DNA of 63,592 nucleotides, filler included, from Octopus bimaculoides (GCF_001194135.2; 9 parts of 8 records of this genome joined end to end with filler, not necessarily neighbours in it); one strand, 5' to 3'. Positions 5,897-57,174 are shown, counted from the first letter of the whole stretch. The notes: a model not told the origin generated them from the letters alone. Program-made: numbers and translations.

Positions 5897-6973
5897 NNNN
5901 NNNNNNNNNNNNNNNNNNNNNNNNNNNNNNNNNNNNNNNNNNNNNNNNNNNNNNNNNNNNNNNNNNNNNNNNNNNNNNNNNNNNNNNNNNNNNNNNNNNN
6001 NNNNNNNNNNNNNNNNNNNNNNNNNNNNNNNNNNNNNNNNNNNNNNNNNNNNNNNNNNNNNNNNNNNNNNNNNNNTATATATATATATATATATATATAT
6101 ATGGAGAGACGGATCAGTAAGCTGGAGATTTTGCATCCACTATATTACATATGTGAGGTGCTACTACATTTGCATTTACTAAATAGAAGGCTCCCTTGAG
6201 AGATTATTCGACCTTGGCCATATTAATGATCGTAATTCCTTTTACTTTTATACGTATTACGCTTAGTTTTTTTCCGAGCAGAATATGCTTCGCTGAGGAA
6301 GTTTAATAATAACGAAACATCTCCGTTGATTTTATCAAGAAGACTTAAAGACCAGATCCACTCCAATCTGCATCGTCTATATTATCCGAACATTTAGATC
6401 AACATATCTCATTACTGTTACCTCTCTTGCTTATTGATCTAAAATTTTAATCACTTCTGGAAGGTACTTTGTCTACTACTTGTATGTTTAATCAACATTC
6501 TTAACTGACTATATTACGTTTGTGTCTTACTAACACTTTACGTTCATATTCTGTCTATCTCAAATTTTTTATACTATTACAACACTAAGTACGATCCTTC
6601 CAGCATGACATTATTTCAAATTTAATACAATATTCAACACACACACAAATTCATATACATACACACATCAATTCATACAAACACGTACACATGCTACTTT
6701 GTACGCCAATGATCATTACACGATTCTACTTACCCTTAGTAACACAATGCCATAGTCGTACATAGCTGTTGGATCTTCAGTTGCTGCACTTTCTCGGAAA
6801 TATTCCATTGCTGATTCCATATTCCTTTTCAGGCCTTGTGCTCCCCAATATAATGCTCGGCCAATACGTAACTATAAAAATAAACATAGAGATGGGAATT
6901 TATATGTTAAAAAACATTAACATAACTGATTTTGGACATTCATGTATGTTTCATTATGATAATCCCCATCATC

Positions 6974-7200
6974 AGGCGGCGAGCTGGCAGAATCGTTAGC
7001 ACGCCGGGCGAAATGCTTAGCCTAACCCTAACCCTAATTTCACCCGTTGTTACTTTCTGAGTTCAAATTCCGCCGAGATTGCCTTTGCTTTTCATCCTTT
7101 CGAGTCAATAAATTAAGTACCAGTTGAGTACTGAGGTCGATGTGAACGACTGTCCTCATCTCCACAAAATCCAGGCCTTGTACCTAGAGTAGAAAGGATT
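6974..7200 (+). mobile_element. tRNA-derived SINE, family C, carrying a telomeric-repeat insertion
   Basis: Head GGCGGCGAGCTGGCAGAATCGTTAGC..GAGTTCAAATTCC (A/B-box-like); tail CCTTGTACCTAGAGTAGAAAGG. Confidence 0.9.
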
Positions 7201-7217
7201 ATTATAATCCGCATCAT

Positions 7218-7432
7218 AAAGCGGCGAGCTGGCAGAATCGTTAGCATGCTGGACGAAATGCTGAGCGGTATTTCGCCCGTCGCTACATTCTGTGTTCAAA
7301 TTCCACCGAGGTCGACTTTGCCTTTCATCCTTTCGGAGTCGATAAAAATAAGTACCAGTTGAACGCTGGGGTCGATATAATCGACTCATCCCCACCTCCC
7401 ACAAGTTGTCCTTATGGCAAAAATTTGAAATA
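7218..7432 (+). mobile_element. SINE family C
   Basis: Tandem copy of 6974-7200 with the alternative tail (AAAATTTGAAA). Confidence 0.9.
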
Positions 7433-7644
7433 ATTATTATAATCACCATCATGATTTTTGCGTAAGTTGTTCATATTTGCATGCACTGTATATTGTGCAT
7501 ATTGTACATGTAGGGAAGTGGTCACTCCCATCTCACAAAAAAAAATCCATTTATACCACTTTCCGTGTTTTGCTTTGATCGTCCCCTACTGCAGATATTT
7601 TCCACTCATTTACACTAAGCAATTATTGTTCATTTACATCTCAA

Positions 7645-7860
7645 TTCTTTTCTACTCTAGGCACAAGGCCCGAAATTTTGGCGGAGGGGACCTGTCGATT
7701 AGATCGACCTCAGTACGCAACTAATACTTAATTTATCGATCCCGAAAGGATGAAGGGTAAAGTCGACCTCGGCAGAATTTGAACTCAGAACGTAAAGACA
7801 GACGAAATACCGCTAAGCATTTCGCCCGGCGTGCTAACGTTTCTGACAGGTCGCCGCCTT
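7645..7860 (-). mobile_element. SINE family C
   Basis: Reverse complement of the family C consensus, full length. Confidence 0.9.
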
Positions 7861-8179
7861 TGCCTACTAGCACAATTGTTTCTTCTCTGTACTTAGGGCT
7901 ATACTTTTAAGTGTCACGTCGCAGGAGCGAAACTGGAATTATGTAATTTCAAAGTGATTTTTTTTTTACCTAACACGGACACAGAGAATAGTTAAAAATG
8001 AAAAGAAAACGTCCTTGCATTGAAAATAATTGTATTGACCTTTGGGTTTGACATTCTTTTTCTGACTCTATTGAAAATTTCTACGAGGACGAAATGCAAA
8101 CCATTGTTTAGAAAAATTGACAACAAATGAGTTATGAATTTTTAAAAACTGAAATATTTGAAAAAGCAAAAACAGAAAT

Positions 8180-8391
8180 TGGTGAGGTGGCAGAAATATT
8201 AACACGTCGGGCAAAATGCTTAGCGGCATTTCGTCTGTCTTTACGTTCTGAGTTCACATCCCGCTGGGGTCGACTTTGCCTTCCATCCTTTCTGGGTCGA
8301 TAAAATAAGTACCAGTTACGCACTGGGTCGATGTAATCGAATTACCTTCTCCCTCGAACTTGCTGGCTTTGTACCAAAATTTGAAACCAAT
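8180..8391 (+). mobile_element. SINE family C
   Basis: Family C body with tail GTACCAAAATTTGAAACCAAT. Confidence 0.85.
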
Positions 8392-8636
8392 ATTTTATGG
8401 AAAGTTCCAGAATCTTTTTTTTTTTCTCCTTTTTACTTTTAATATTTTTTGTTGTATTGTTTTCGAAACGTGAATATCACAATCACAACAAATTTTTATT
8501 TTTTTTAGAAAATAATGATAAAAATATTGCAAANNNNNNNNNNNNNNNNNNNNNNNNNNNNNNNNNNNNNNNNNNNNTTAATTAATTAANNNNNNNNNNN
8601 NNNNNNNNNNNNNNNNNNNNNNNNNNNNNNNNNAGG

Positions 8637-54300: not shown

Positions 54301-54706
54301 ATAATAATAATAATAATAATAATAATAATGATAATAACAATAAAATTTGCGTCCTGATGGAGTATCTACATGAGTAGTTCAGCCTGCTAAAATAGAAATT
54401 GAAAAATCTCTTTTACAAAATGCATAAACAGGAATAGTGCGGGTTGTGATGTGCTGTTCCTAAAAAATAAAATACGATGATACCAGTGGAATGATCTTGA
54501 TCCCAGGCTTGCCTCAAGCAACACTGAGGACAGGGTTTTTAGCAACATTATAAGGACTCCCACAGCGCTTAGATTATAAATGAGCTCTTAGTCCCGTGAG
54601 GACCCGGGGTAACTGCCTAATGTGCCTATACCTGAAGACGACACTGACTGAAGGAGAGTTATGAAGACAGCTAATAAAATTTGGTAATATATTATTTATA
54701 TACAGA

Positions 54707-54920
54707 AAGCGGCAAGCTGGCAGAATCGTTAGCACGCCTGACAAAATGCTTATCCGCATTTTGTCTGTCTTAACGTTCTGAGTTCAAATTCCGCCGAGGA
54801 CGACTTTGCCTTTCATTCTTTCAGCGCCGATGAAATAAGTATCAATTGAACCCTGGGGATCTATGTAGTCGACTTATCCCTCCCCAGTAATTGCTGGCCT
54901 TGTGCCAAAATTTGAGACCG
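54707..54920 (+). mobile_element. SINE family C
   Basis: Full-length family C match. Confidence 0.9.
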
Positions 54921-54937
54921 ACATATTATTTATATAC

Positions 54938-55320
54938 TGTTGGCACTCCGTCGATTACAACGACGAGGGTTCCAGTTGATCCGATCAACGGAACAGCCTG
55001 CTCGTGAAATTAACGTGCAAGTGGCTGAGCACTCCACAAACACGTGTACCCTTAACGTAGTTCTCGAGAGAGATTCAGCGTGACACAGTGTGACAAGGCT
55101 GGCCCTTTGAATTACAGGCACAACAGAAACAGGAAGTAAGAGTGAGAGAAAGTTGTGGTGAAAGAGTACAGCAGGGTTTGCCACCATCCCCTGCCGGAGC
55201 CTCGTGGAGCTTTAGGTGTCTTCGGTCAATAAACACTCACAACGTCCGGTATGGGAATCGAAACCGCGATCCTACGACTGCGAGTCCGCTGCCCTAACCA
55301 CTGGGCCATTGCGCCTCCAC
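54938..55320 (-). mobile_element. SINE family B, full length, with 10-bp TSD
   Basis: ATTTATATAC at 54928-54937 and 55321-55330; intact A/B-box-like head. Confidence 0.93.
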
Positions 55321-55585
55321 ATTTATATACAAAGCGGTGATATAAAGCGGAAAATAGTACCGTATTTGAAATCATAAAAGAGGCAAAGGTATATTAGATG
55401 CCCACCAATTTCAGCAGCGAATATTTCATAAAAAATTTTTCTAGTACATTAAAGCAAGAAATCTTTAGCACACCTGGCGAAATGCTTAGCGGTATTTCGT
55501 CCGCCTTTACGTTCTAAGTTCAAATTCCGATTATAGGTAACTACACACTGATCTTATACAGGAACGGTTCCAAACTGTGATAAAA

Positions 55586-55725
55586 ATCATTCTGCTCGGC
55601 GATTTCAATGCTCGGGTTGGAGCTAATTCAGAAATATGGAATTGCTTCTGTAGATACGGACTTGGAAAGATGAATAGTAATGGCCTTTTGCTTCTCGAAT
55701 TATACACTAAATTTGGGCTTCAGAA
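55586..55725 (+). pseudogene. APE endonuclease fragment of an RTE/CR1-type LINE
   Basis: IILLGDFNARVG..W....YGLGKMNSNGLLLLEL. Confidence 0.8.
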
Positions 55726-57123
55726 ATCAAGCACATAGTATGTACATACATGCATGCACACACACGCACGCACGCACGCACACACACACACACACACACA
55801 CACACACACACACACACACACACNNNNNNNNNNNNNNNNNNNNNNNNNNNNNNNNNNNNNNNNNNNNTTAATTAATTAANNNNNNNNNNNNNNNNNNNNN
55901 NNNNNNNNNNNNNNNNNNNNNNNATATATATATATATATATATATATATATATATATATATACATATATATATATACATATGCACATATATATATATGTG
56001 TTTGTATATATTTATATATATACATATGTATATTTATATATATTTATATATATATATATATATATAGATTAATAGACACATGGATTGATAGACAGATAGA
56101 TAGATAGATAAATATCTGTGCAGGCGTATGTCACATCACGTCTTAATAAGTGTAAAGGAAATTTGTTGCCTAAGGTATAGCTTTGCAACCGTTATATTAA
56201 TGTATAAGTTATAAACAATCGCTGAACAAGAGAGAAGAGAGAGAAAAAAGCACGTCTTTTATTTAGGAAGGCAGTGGACAGAAAGAGAGATCCCCTTTCG
56301 TTATCTGTCAGCAACGAGAGAGTTAGGGATGAAGAGAGAAATATAGAGAACGGTGAAAGGGAGAGAAGAATAGGGAAAGAGTGGGAGAGAAAAACAGAAA
56401 GGATGAAGAACAAGAGCAGGAGAGAGATAGACAGAGAAGAGATAGTAGAAAACGTGCTTTTTTCTGTCTCTTCTCTCAAAGCTCGTCCACGTAGCGTTCA
56501 TAATAATGTTTCTATCGTCTTGTCTCAACAACCCTCACCGTTTATTTTTAATGTCTTGTTCTCACTGTCCTGTTCTTCTTAACACTATCACCCTCCGCAA
56601 AAAATCCCAAATTTTATTTAATTTGCTTTGTGGGAAGGACTGTTCCAACGATGTCGCTTATTGTCCTTGCCTTCGAAACGCGGAATAGATGGAACAGGAA
56701 CAACTGACGAGTGGGTATACTCTTTATGTTGCATATCTCGTTTCTCTGTTTTTTTTTGTTGGTTGAAAAATGTTCGTCTTCTGTTTTCGTTTTTATGTTT
56801 TCATTTCTCATTGTATTTAACGTTTGTTTCATGTTCTGTACCCATATATGCATGTATGTATACATATAGATGTAAGTATGTACATATATGTATGGATATA
56901 TGCATATATTTATGTATTATTTATATTATTATATGATCGAAAGCCACGTTTCCTTTCCCAGTAAGTTTTATCTATCTATCTATCTATCTATCTATCTATC
57001 TATCTATACATACATACATACATACATACATATATATAGTAAGATTTACTAACTTTGCTTGTATTATCGTCACATACGTATCAATTATTTTCGCATCCTA
57101 ACCGACGTATCCATCTATTTTTC

Positions 57124-57174
57124 GCATTCTGAAGAGAATTACAAAAACTATTAAATCGAAACGATCGTAAATGC
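57124..57174 (+). ncRNA. Putative minimal type I hammerhead ribozyme, fully canonical core
   Basis: GCAUU-CUGAAGA-G(AAUUA..UUAAAU)C-GAA-ACGAUCGU-A-AAUGC: 5-bp stem I, G10.1-C11.1 pair, 8-nt palindromic stem III, GUA triplet; predicted cleavage after 57169. Confidence 0.8.

Follow-up and report, generated by a model that had tools for sequence, protein, structure and literature searches.

Hammerhead ribozyme repeats, probably derived from Penelope-like elements, in Octopus bimaculoides DNA

Does octopus DNA harbour short non-coding elements that carry hammerhead ribozymes and are moved by Penelope-like elements (PLEs)? The question is raised by a window of 63,592 nucleotides (nt) of Octopus bimaculoides DNA, the window being the whole stretch analysed, with coordinates counted from its first letter. 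An initial annotation described hammerhead-like motifs at 57124, 38224, 10496 and 17495, and the sequences at these places are as it described them. The best explanation, which we consider likely but by no means assured, is that the window carries short type I hammerhead repeats without open reading frames (ORFs): family A in (TA)n sites, family C as an old 343-nt tandem, and single decayed motifs. These repeats likely come from PLE ends and were likely copied in trans by a PLE reverse transcriptase (RT) and GIY-YIG endonuclease, with self-cleavage predicted. Judged by sequence, family A appears to be an element resembling a pseudo-long terminal repeat (pLTR) with a minimal hammerhead, and family C a decayed retrozyme of the non-LTR kind.

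Family A is represented by two copies in the window, each with its own hammerhead:

10406..10572, minus strand: copy A1, 5'-shortened, with a short internal duplication to 10587 and (TA)n flanks; 98% identical to A2 over 167 bp.
10496..10532, minus strand: A1 minimal type I hammerhead with A6U in its core (CUGUUGA); cleavage is predicted after C at 10501.
17428..17622, plus strand: copy A2, a ~195-bp unit between (TA)n runs; depth plateau at 17437-17631, tandem joints returning to 17428-17434.
17495..17531, plus strand: A2 hammerhead with a private G12A; family cut predicted after 17526.

The A1 motif is laid out as UCUUU / CUGUUGA / A / GAGC-GUA-GCUC / GAA / ACGU / C / AAAGA, with stems I and II of 5 and 4 bp, a bulged A, GAAACGUC, and U at core position A6. 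A2 is laid out in the same way save that G12 is A. When reads and contigs were mapped to 17424-17800 at an identity of at least 80%, the family was found in 12,110 contigs of DNA run X5 and 2,099 of run X11, the latter from a second species (organism B). Over 17437-17631 its summed depth in X5 comes to 2.0-3.6 million, compared with 44 for the unique flank. The depth ratio is 5.5×10^4 on this basis, or 2.3×10^4 against the depth of 108 at the family C locus, a ratio that does not equal copy number in a run that may itself be the source of the window. We estimate tens of thousands of copies in two octopus species and, if the depth ratio holds, ~4-11 Mb of octopus DNA. The family A pattern has no match in metagenome contigs or in viral contigs. 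The 195-bp unit (36% GC, no ORF) forms head-to-tail joints in DNA contigs, running 17639→17428/17433/17434 with 1-6 nt of TA between. Among the joints listed, further ones return to 17445, 17454, 17459, 17460, 17486, 17513 and 17527. The joints suggest a recurrent ~195-bp unit plus 5'-shortened copies.

The family is homogeneous over its core. G is found at 17519 in ~98% of reads and contigs, and A2, in which this G12 is lost, is therefore a decayed copy. Within 17495-17518 no DNA variant reaches 8%, so that both species have U6 as the state of the family. N17 is the only motif site, other than the private G12A, that varies in DNA at this level; it is C or U, both of which are allowed, with U at 25% in X5 and 97% in X11. 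G16.2 is variable in RNA (10-24%) and varies in ~1% of DNA. In organism B, depth reaches its maximum over the hammerhead, at 625k, and falls to 317k 5' of it and 125k 3' of it. Loose ends before 17496, in 84 and 61 reads, mark a subfamily diverging just 5' of stem I. Measured against the published consensus of PLE hammerheads (U-rich-NNN-CUGANGAH-G..C-GAAAN-palindrome-NUH), family A agrees except at position 6.

Family C differs in layout and abundance, and lies within an intron:

38040..38790, minus strand: family C, two tandem units ~75% alike, intronic and antisense to the host gene.
38224..38269, minus strand: C1 hammerhead with a stem I of 6 bp, helix III AUUACGUGAU and, in this copy, G8U.
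38678..38736, minus strand: C2 hammerhead with an intact core and, in this copy, U16.1A; no block is better conserved among relatives.
38790..38857, plus strand: inverted family C fragment(s) beside the upstream end of C2; C1 201-235 matches 38822-38857 on the opposite strand (BLAST E 3e-4).

The tandem consists of two units of 343 nt, two 59-nt gap artefacts being skipped, with 38% GC and a longest ATG ORF of 38 amino acids. C1 has the core CUGAUUA (G8 = U) and a U.U at the base of stem II; C2, the second tandem unit, was absent from the initial list and combines an intact CUGAUGA with A at U16.1. An inverted fragment like that next to C2 is also seen in PLE-type insertions. Mapping to 38545-38810 gave 24 contigs in X5 and 26 in X11, and 20 of the 24 X5 contigs are under 90% identity; family C is thus an old, low-copy family. 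Depth on the C2 hammerhead is 1462 vs. 108 for the locus itself and 171-265 beside the motif, that is, 13.6 times the locus on the hammerhead vs. 1.6-2.1 times beside it. The ribozyme is therefore conserved above its flanks in C by depth, and in A by depth in organism B, but not significantly in A by variant count.

Further observations were made at this locus. Depth in X5 rises by ~900 exactly over the hammerhead at 38680-38740, and 95% of X5 contigs continue into unlike sequence past the match. The rise in depth suggests that elsewhere there is a repeat family, young and homogeneous, that has nothing but the ribozyme in common with C; it would be the likeliest home of intact retrozyme copies. 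In the core and at the U.U pair no variant of 12% or more is listed, differences near contig ends being unlisted; loop 2, CAUUA in C2, reads CAAUA in 1301 of 1462 depth, with a minor variant at 38707. U16.1 is found in C1 as well as in one X11 contig and one two-contig loose end of X5. The C2 5' strand CUGCCG matches the 3' strand CGGUAG of the X11 contig and C1 has CUACUG/CAGUAG, a possible compensatory change, though across different copies. An organism B contig switches strand at 38650/38740, and one X5 contig has an extra 29-nt unit at 38787. A second conserved block lies at 38560-38650 (depth 930 vs. 108), in which a 22-nt stretch has 19/22 identity to sequence near the PLE 3' end in three loci (L002, L003 and L043; E 0.29), a weak lead for a putative shared RT recognition signal.

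The remaining motifs are single. Element B is the best preserved, and three look-alikes are decayed:

57038..57265, plus strand: element B, 228 bp between (TA)n runs.
57124..57174, plus strand: B hammerhead with intact core, 5-bp stem I, weak stem II and helix III ACGAUCGU; predicted cut after 57169.
6293..6321, plus strand: decayed minimal hammerhead without a stem I; the core CUGAGGA and the stem II of 3 bp are preserved, and helix III is ACAU.
15004..15036, plus strand: decayed look-alike, AAAACGAUCGU; core unrecognisable, helix III side only.
18415..18456, plus strand: decayed look-alike, AAAACGAUCGUA, hairpin UAGU-GAAA-ACUA; core unrecognisable; on the opposite strand to the RT remnant discussed below.

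The B motif reads GCAUU / CUGAAGA / 22 nt with only 2 closing pairs / GAA / ACGAUCGU / A / AAUGC. Element B has a U-rich 5' flank, and its predicted cut lies 96 nt from its 3' end, the same distance as in A. The 11-mer [GA]AAACGATCGT, picked after the fact, has 3 copies in the window vs. 0.042 expected. Because of this excess, 15004 and 18415 are regarded as decayed motifs. The look-alikes of the initial annotation are upheld to this extent: the one listed at 6291 keeps its core and stem II, and the other two are supported by the 11-mer, but their cores are unrecognisable. Most likely, B and these three motifs are remnants of old PLE 3' ends. Two further motifs lie on the minus strand. One, at 60601-60632, has a perfect core CUGAAGA, a 6-bp stem II and GAA-AUAU-U but no stem I, and is matched in 49 of 200 shuffles; the other, at 23580-23610, is a weak look-alike (UUGAAGA...CGAAACGUU) with a collapsed stem II.

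How far do these motifs share a design? A core of the type CUGANGA (or UUGANAA) is present in B, C2 and 6291, and not in family A, in which U6 is fixed, nor in C1 (G8U). The G10.1-C11.1 pair with stem II is present in A with 4 bp and in B with only 2, and is replaced by U.U in C. All three have a palindromic 15.2-16.2/loop 3 followed by an NUH triplet (ACGU-C/U in A, ACGAUCGU-A in B, AUUACGUGAU-A in C). The computed self-duplex of helix III is worth -1.7 kcal in A and -10.0 kcal in B, and the C1 dimer has a 10-bp intermolecular helix. A palindromic helix III is an ordinary feature of metazoan type I hammerheads (PMC4209133; PMC3088659), and so nothing peculiar to these elements. Nor do the monomers fold as hammerheads, as had been stated: minimum-energy folding gave this fold in 0 of 9 fragments (z -0.41 to +1.16). 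Self-dimers of A1, B and C1 are predicted to be 7-11 kcal stabler than two monomers each. Beyond the motif A, B and C show no relatedness in pairwise comparison (z <= 2.0), and homology among them was rejected on this ground; of the three unrelated repeat families proposed, A and C are confirmed as repeats and B is a candidate.

Statistics on the window are modest and depend on the settings of the descriptor. In a first scan, 2 hits were found vs. 0.16 in shuffled sequence at one setting (0/100 shuffles reached this number), but 1 hit vs. 1.02 at another (63/100 reach it). A second scan gave values from 3 vs. 0.20 (0/200) down to 0 vs. 0.14. The excess of hits over shuffled sequence thus appears at some settings but not at others, and the window alone is suggestive, short of conclusive. 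Local Rfam scans recovered B alone, its 12.7 bits falling short of the gathering score of 34, and no hammerhead is among the 150 of 191 Rfam matches listed for the whole window. A model built from nine PLE hammerheads (R1), which represent few distinct families and are too narrow to judge by, gave 0 candidates at E up to 10. The description of the elements as ORF-less holds for A and C. No RNA polymerase III A+B box pair was found in A, B, C, 6291 or 15004 with a regular expression for the consensus boxes, an insensitive one that missed the B box of a presumed short interspersed nuclear element (SINE) at 18594 as well. No transfer RNA genes were found within the window. SINE status of A, B and C was rejected, as neither an A+B box pair, within the reach of this insensitive expression, nor a tRNA head was found in them.

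What might have moved these repeats? A Penelope-like RT remnant had been placed at 18760-19610, and is borne out within these limits:

18863..19448, minus strand: broken PLE reverse-transcriptase remnant, with stops, frameshifts and a deletion between motifs A and C; no endonuclease part.

A 70-residue piece of it gave 31 phmmer hits at E up to 0.001; Pfam, run on three RT frames, and a word-indexed protein search gave no match to the remnant. Among 13 relatives scanned, RT is followed by a C-terminal GIY-YIG in 6, and an N-terminal GIY-YIG occurs in none; the relatives show DKG and a cysteine linker. By these features the remnant is a canonical RT-GIY-YIG PLE. Identity as a Naiad was rejected, the relatives having a C-terminal GIY-YIG and DKG, not an N-terminal GIY-YIG and DKA. 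Tblastn found no PLE ORF pieces in the window outside 18863-19448, and the remnant has no physical linkage to the A, B and C motifs. The look-alike at 18415 was rejected as the pLTR of this RT, as it lies on the opposite strand and the endonuclease region is missing. The proposal that PLEs mobilise the elements is supported in that the motifs are type I hammerheads of the PLE type (A, B) or the retrozyme type (C); a link of the elements to the local RT remnant is not supported.

Related RT loci elsewhere provide a comparison. The hammerhead descriptor hits 13 of 43 such loci. With L005 (weak, inside an ORF) and L026 (of a different type) set aside, 11 of the 43 carry a minimal hammerhead with a 4-nt palindromic helix III, of which 8 lie in sense 158-870 nt after the ORF match, 1 lies upstream and 2 are inverted. 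Nine of these hammerheads were aligned; they show covariation, with 95% of cells paired (0/500 shuffles), in sequences that the descriptor itself had selected. In L043 a microsatellite follows ~75 nt past the cut, and A and B end 96 nt past theirs. These loci support a shared design, and point to no specific partner PLE. The hit set aside in L026 (7-56, minus strand) looks like a canonical hammerhead; its palindromic helix III is 12 nt long, and it lies apart from the PLE ORF match.

A cycle can be proposed for these repeats, every step of which is inferred from published PLE and retrozyme work. Read-through transcription would cross a tandem, A-(TA)n-A or C-C. Neighbouring palindromic helices III would pair to form a double hammerhead, which would cut after N17, and the monomer would be ligated into a circle by a host ligase of the RtcB type. 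A PLE endonuclease would nick (TA)n and the RT would copy one or more turns of the circle. For A, such copying would yield units flanked by (TA)n at either end, tandem copies with 1-6 nt of TA at the join, and copies shortened at the 5' end, and a circle carrying the TA spacer would explain ends at (TA)n instead of at the cut site. The suggested preference for (TA)n sites applies to A and B, which lie between (TA)n runs, but no such flank was seen for C, the 3' side of which abuts an assembly gap.

Several observations weigh against a PLE-derived, self-cleaving origin. No copy within the window is a fully canonical hammerhead. In the predicted dimers helix III pairs with helix III in B and C1 only, and the A1 dimer adopts a different fold; circles would not be unusually self-paired (z -0.97 for C, +1.16 for A2 and +1.78 for B, all decayed copies). 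DNA similarity of A, B and C to the related PLE loci is no better than E 0.23, and across all the elements the best match to these loci has E 0.049. Conservation of the family A motif over its flanks is not significant by variant count (variable sites in 2/37 motif positions and 20/158 flank positions, with 3/67 upstream and 17/91 downstream; p=0.26, or p=0.06 vs. the 3' flank alone). U6 lets U4-U7 pair with A14-G16.2, giving a monomer rod that buries the core and lies 2.4 kcal below the open form. A6 is kept in 13/13 motifs from PLE-related loci, though the descriptor permitted any base. Changes at A6 lower activity: an A6C hammerhead is slowed to a kobs under 0.1/min (PMC3088659) and is strongly impaired in Mg2+ (PMC7151607).

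The RNA data weigh on the same side. Runs X19 and X21 are unstranded complementary DNA (cDNA), ~6% of which was read, and X22 consists of contigs only; they are poorly suited to the purpose and would miss circles. Family A has 3,249 reads in X19 and 2,588 in X21, of which ~60% continue into unlike sequence. The junction-spanning reads expected of circular RNA did not appear in these cDNA libraries, which showed neither piled-up ends nor RNA-only joints for family A. Go-back joints (3-4 reads each) are present, and were rejected as proof of circles since identical joins occur as DNA tandems. RNA depth on family A falls short of what even sampling of a 2.8-Gb genome (size from PMC13282606) would give, by a factor of 8-19, and the RNA looks like passive read-through. 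C2 has 0 records in X20, a run not shown valid by another stretch, and in the contigs of X22. As a separate observation, 286 reads in X19 and 370 in X21 share one upstream sequence joined at 17520; probably one well-expressed transcript carries a truncated A copy joined there.

The same data allow other accounts, of which two concern family A and are not mutually exclusive. The hammerhead of A may be a dead relic, A6U having abolished catalysis, and the family may have spread as a SINE-like passenger via a PLE-derived 3' tail. We find this account doubtful but a real possibility. It agrees with the reduced activity of position-6 variants (PMC3088659; PMC7151607), the competing helix made by U6, the lack of cut ends in family A RNA and motif conservation not significantly above the flanks; in addition, eight of nine Xenopus retrozyme dimers were uncleaved in vitro (10.64898/2026.07.22.740005). 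In the second species, however, depth peaks on the motif and it is the 3' tail that drifts, the opposite of what tail-only recognition would give, and N17 varies among allowed bases only. Alternatively, A, B and the look-alikes could be 5'-truncated 3' ends or solo pLTRs of autonomous PLEs that never replicated themselves, C alone being a retrozyme. PLE relatives do carry the same motif at their ends, with a short tail after it and, in L043, a microsatellite, and most PLE insertions are 5'-truncated (10.64898/2026.07.22.740005). Joints of family A that return to seven sites in 17445-17527 indicate variable 5' shortening, and RNA loose ends before 17428 begin alike in two runs, so that some copies may extend upstream. 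We nevertheless hold truncation to be rather unlikely: DNA depth of family A forms a plateau to 17437 with no slope, several independent joints return to 17428-17434, and the loose ends of organism B before 17428 are TA-rich (15 contigs), which together argue for a recurrent 5' boundary.

For the single motifs at B, 6291, 15004 and 18415, chance matches in AT-rich DNA have to be weighed as well. Scores under the Rfam threshold, the lack of hits with model R1, single-motif counts that 3-63% of shuffles reach at some settings and the 2-bp stem II of B are all compatible with chance. The three copies of [GA]AAACGATCGT vs. 0.042 expected, each with a possible stem I, speak against it, as do the U-rich 5' flank of B, its (TA)n on both sides and its 96-nt tail, equal in length to that of A; chance is very improbable to us. 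The origin from PLE ends with copying in trans remains our preferred explanation. A bolder version of it for A is decidedly improbable in our estimate: the family would be a retroelement with a circular RNA of ~195 nt, present at tens of thousands of copies in two or more octopus species, its hammerhead working with U6. U6 would lock the monomer in the inactive rod, only tandem transcripts (or Mn2+ or a PLE protein) would activate it, and the (UA)n spacer of the circle would guide insertion into (TA)n. If this were true, the core of family A would represent a variant found in nature and kept by selection, and retrozyme circles would have an off switch of their own. The A6U fixed in a very large family of two species is the only point that might be new. 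The family offers a ready test of whether PLE hammerheads must cleave for the element to spread; the role of the hammerhead in PLEs has been called unclear (Craig et al., 2021, 10.1101/2021.04.23.441226).

Among other features of the window are two plus-strand exons, and family C lies antisense in the intron between them. These exons (37849-38010 and 39102-39299) belong to an uncharacterised Octopus gene, with 81% and 68% identity to O. sinensis LOC115226398. The exon at 37849-38010 matches nine proteins, and the eight that name an organism are all from Octopus; Pfam gave no match on three exon frames. Assembly artefacts are seen at 38295-38402, 38486-38593 and 53418-54139, as exact 49-bp and 356-bp duplications across 10-N gaps, and further N runs are 44N-linker-44N joins. 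ORF pieces at 47140-52626, 40057-40455 and 9964-10100 resemble what we take to be the RT of a long interspersed nuclear element (LINE), a helicase of the Pif1/Helitron type and a mariner transposase.

How do these elements compare with known systems? Metazoan PLEs widely carry minimal hammerheads with a palindromic helix III, which are also widespread in solitary form, and the published alignment includes the molluscs Lottia and Crassostrea (Cervera and de la Peña, 2014, PMC4209133); the searched text of that paper makes no mention of cephalopods. A and B share with these pLTR hammerheads the U-rich 5' flank, short stem I, G10.1-C11.1, palindromic helix III and NUH, as well as occurrence mostly as solitary dispersed copies, and A also shares a bulge after A9. 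A differs in having U6 family-wide, a state absent from the alignment rows seen. The nearest natural parallel is the A6C hammerhead of phage Bcep176, which also has a substitution at core position 6; there, however, the base is C, not U, and it occurs at a single phage locus vs. a high-copy animal family. In assays it was slow in Mg2+ and better in Mn2+, and U10.1-U11.1 and weak stems III have likewise been described already (PMC3088659; PMC7151607). The RT remnant is comparable to canonical EN+ PLEs with a cysteine linker of the Neptune/Nematis type, but is dead and unlinked to A, B and C; Naiads, which occur in Octopus and target (TA)n, have an N-terminal endonuclease and no hammerhead (Craig et al., 2021, 10.1101/2021.04.23.441226).

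Among the non-LTR retrozymes, which measure 150-450 bp, are families from mussel (350-390 bp) and axolotl (330/350 bp), and circularisation by RtcB has been shown for both (Cervera and de la Peña, 2020, PMC7229834). Family C is like them in its 343-nt tandem unit, 38% GC, lack of an ORF, extended stem I, and a U.U at the base of stem II, a trait that axolotl HHR_Amex2 also has. It differs in that both local hammerheads are mutated, no RNA was seen, and circles are not highly self-paired; A differs in being mainly dispersed in (TA)n. Animal retrozymes are reported to derive from PLE pLTRs in a study that does not cover molluscs, and which calls a retrozyme active when two consecutive units hold a complete type I hammerhead (Li, Clavereau and Pollet, 2026 preprint, 10.64898/2026.07.22.740005). 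Such a pair is not found at the C locus (C1 G8U, C2 U16.1A). A resembles the PLE-derived Xenopus retrozymes of that study in its tandem and monomer copies and minimal hammerhead. The main texts of these two retrozyme papers make no mention of octopus or cephalopods.

Octopus repeats have been catalogued, with 31 recently active PLE families and 893 unclassified SINE families and no mention of ribozymes in the parts seen (PMC13282606); a further octopus repeat paper (PMC8967140) has 0 hits for ribozyme or hammerhead. The supposition that the elements are invisible to annotation is unlikely to hold for a repeat as abundant as A, though a strict CUGANGA descriptor misses its ribozyme. No description of cephalopod hammerheads or retrozymes, of A6U or of a CUGUUGA core was found in the open-licence literature, in which the present elements are thus without an earlier report; they extend PLE-type hammerheads and non-LTR retrozymes to cephalopods. 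The results also suggest a PLE origin for one octopus repeat of very high abundance, a ribozyme element that would escape a scan for strict CUGANGA cores. A and C are new cephalopod members of the known PLE-hammerhead and retrozyme kinds, the remaining biology being that already known for these systems.

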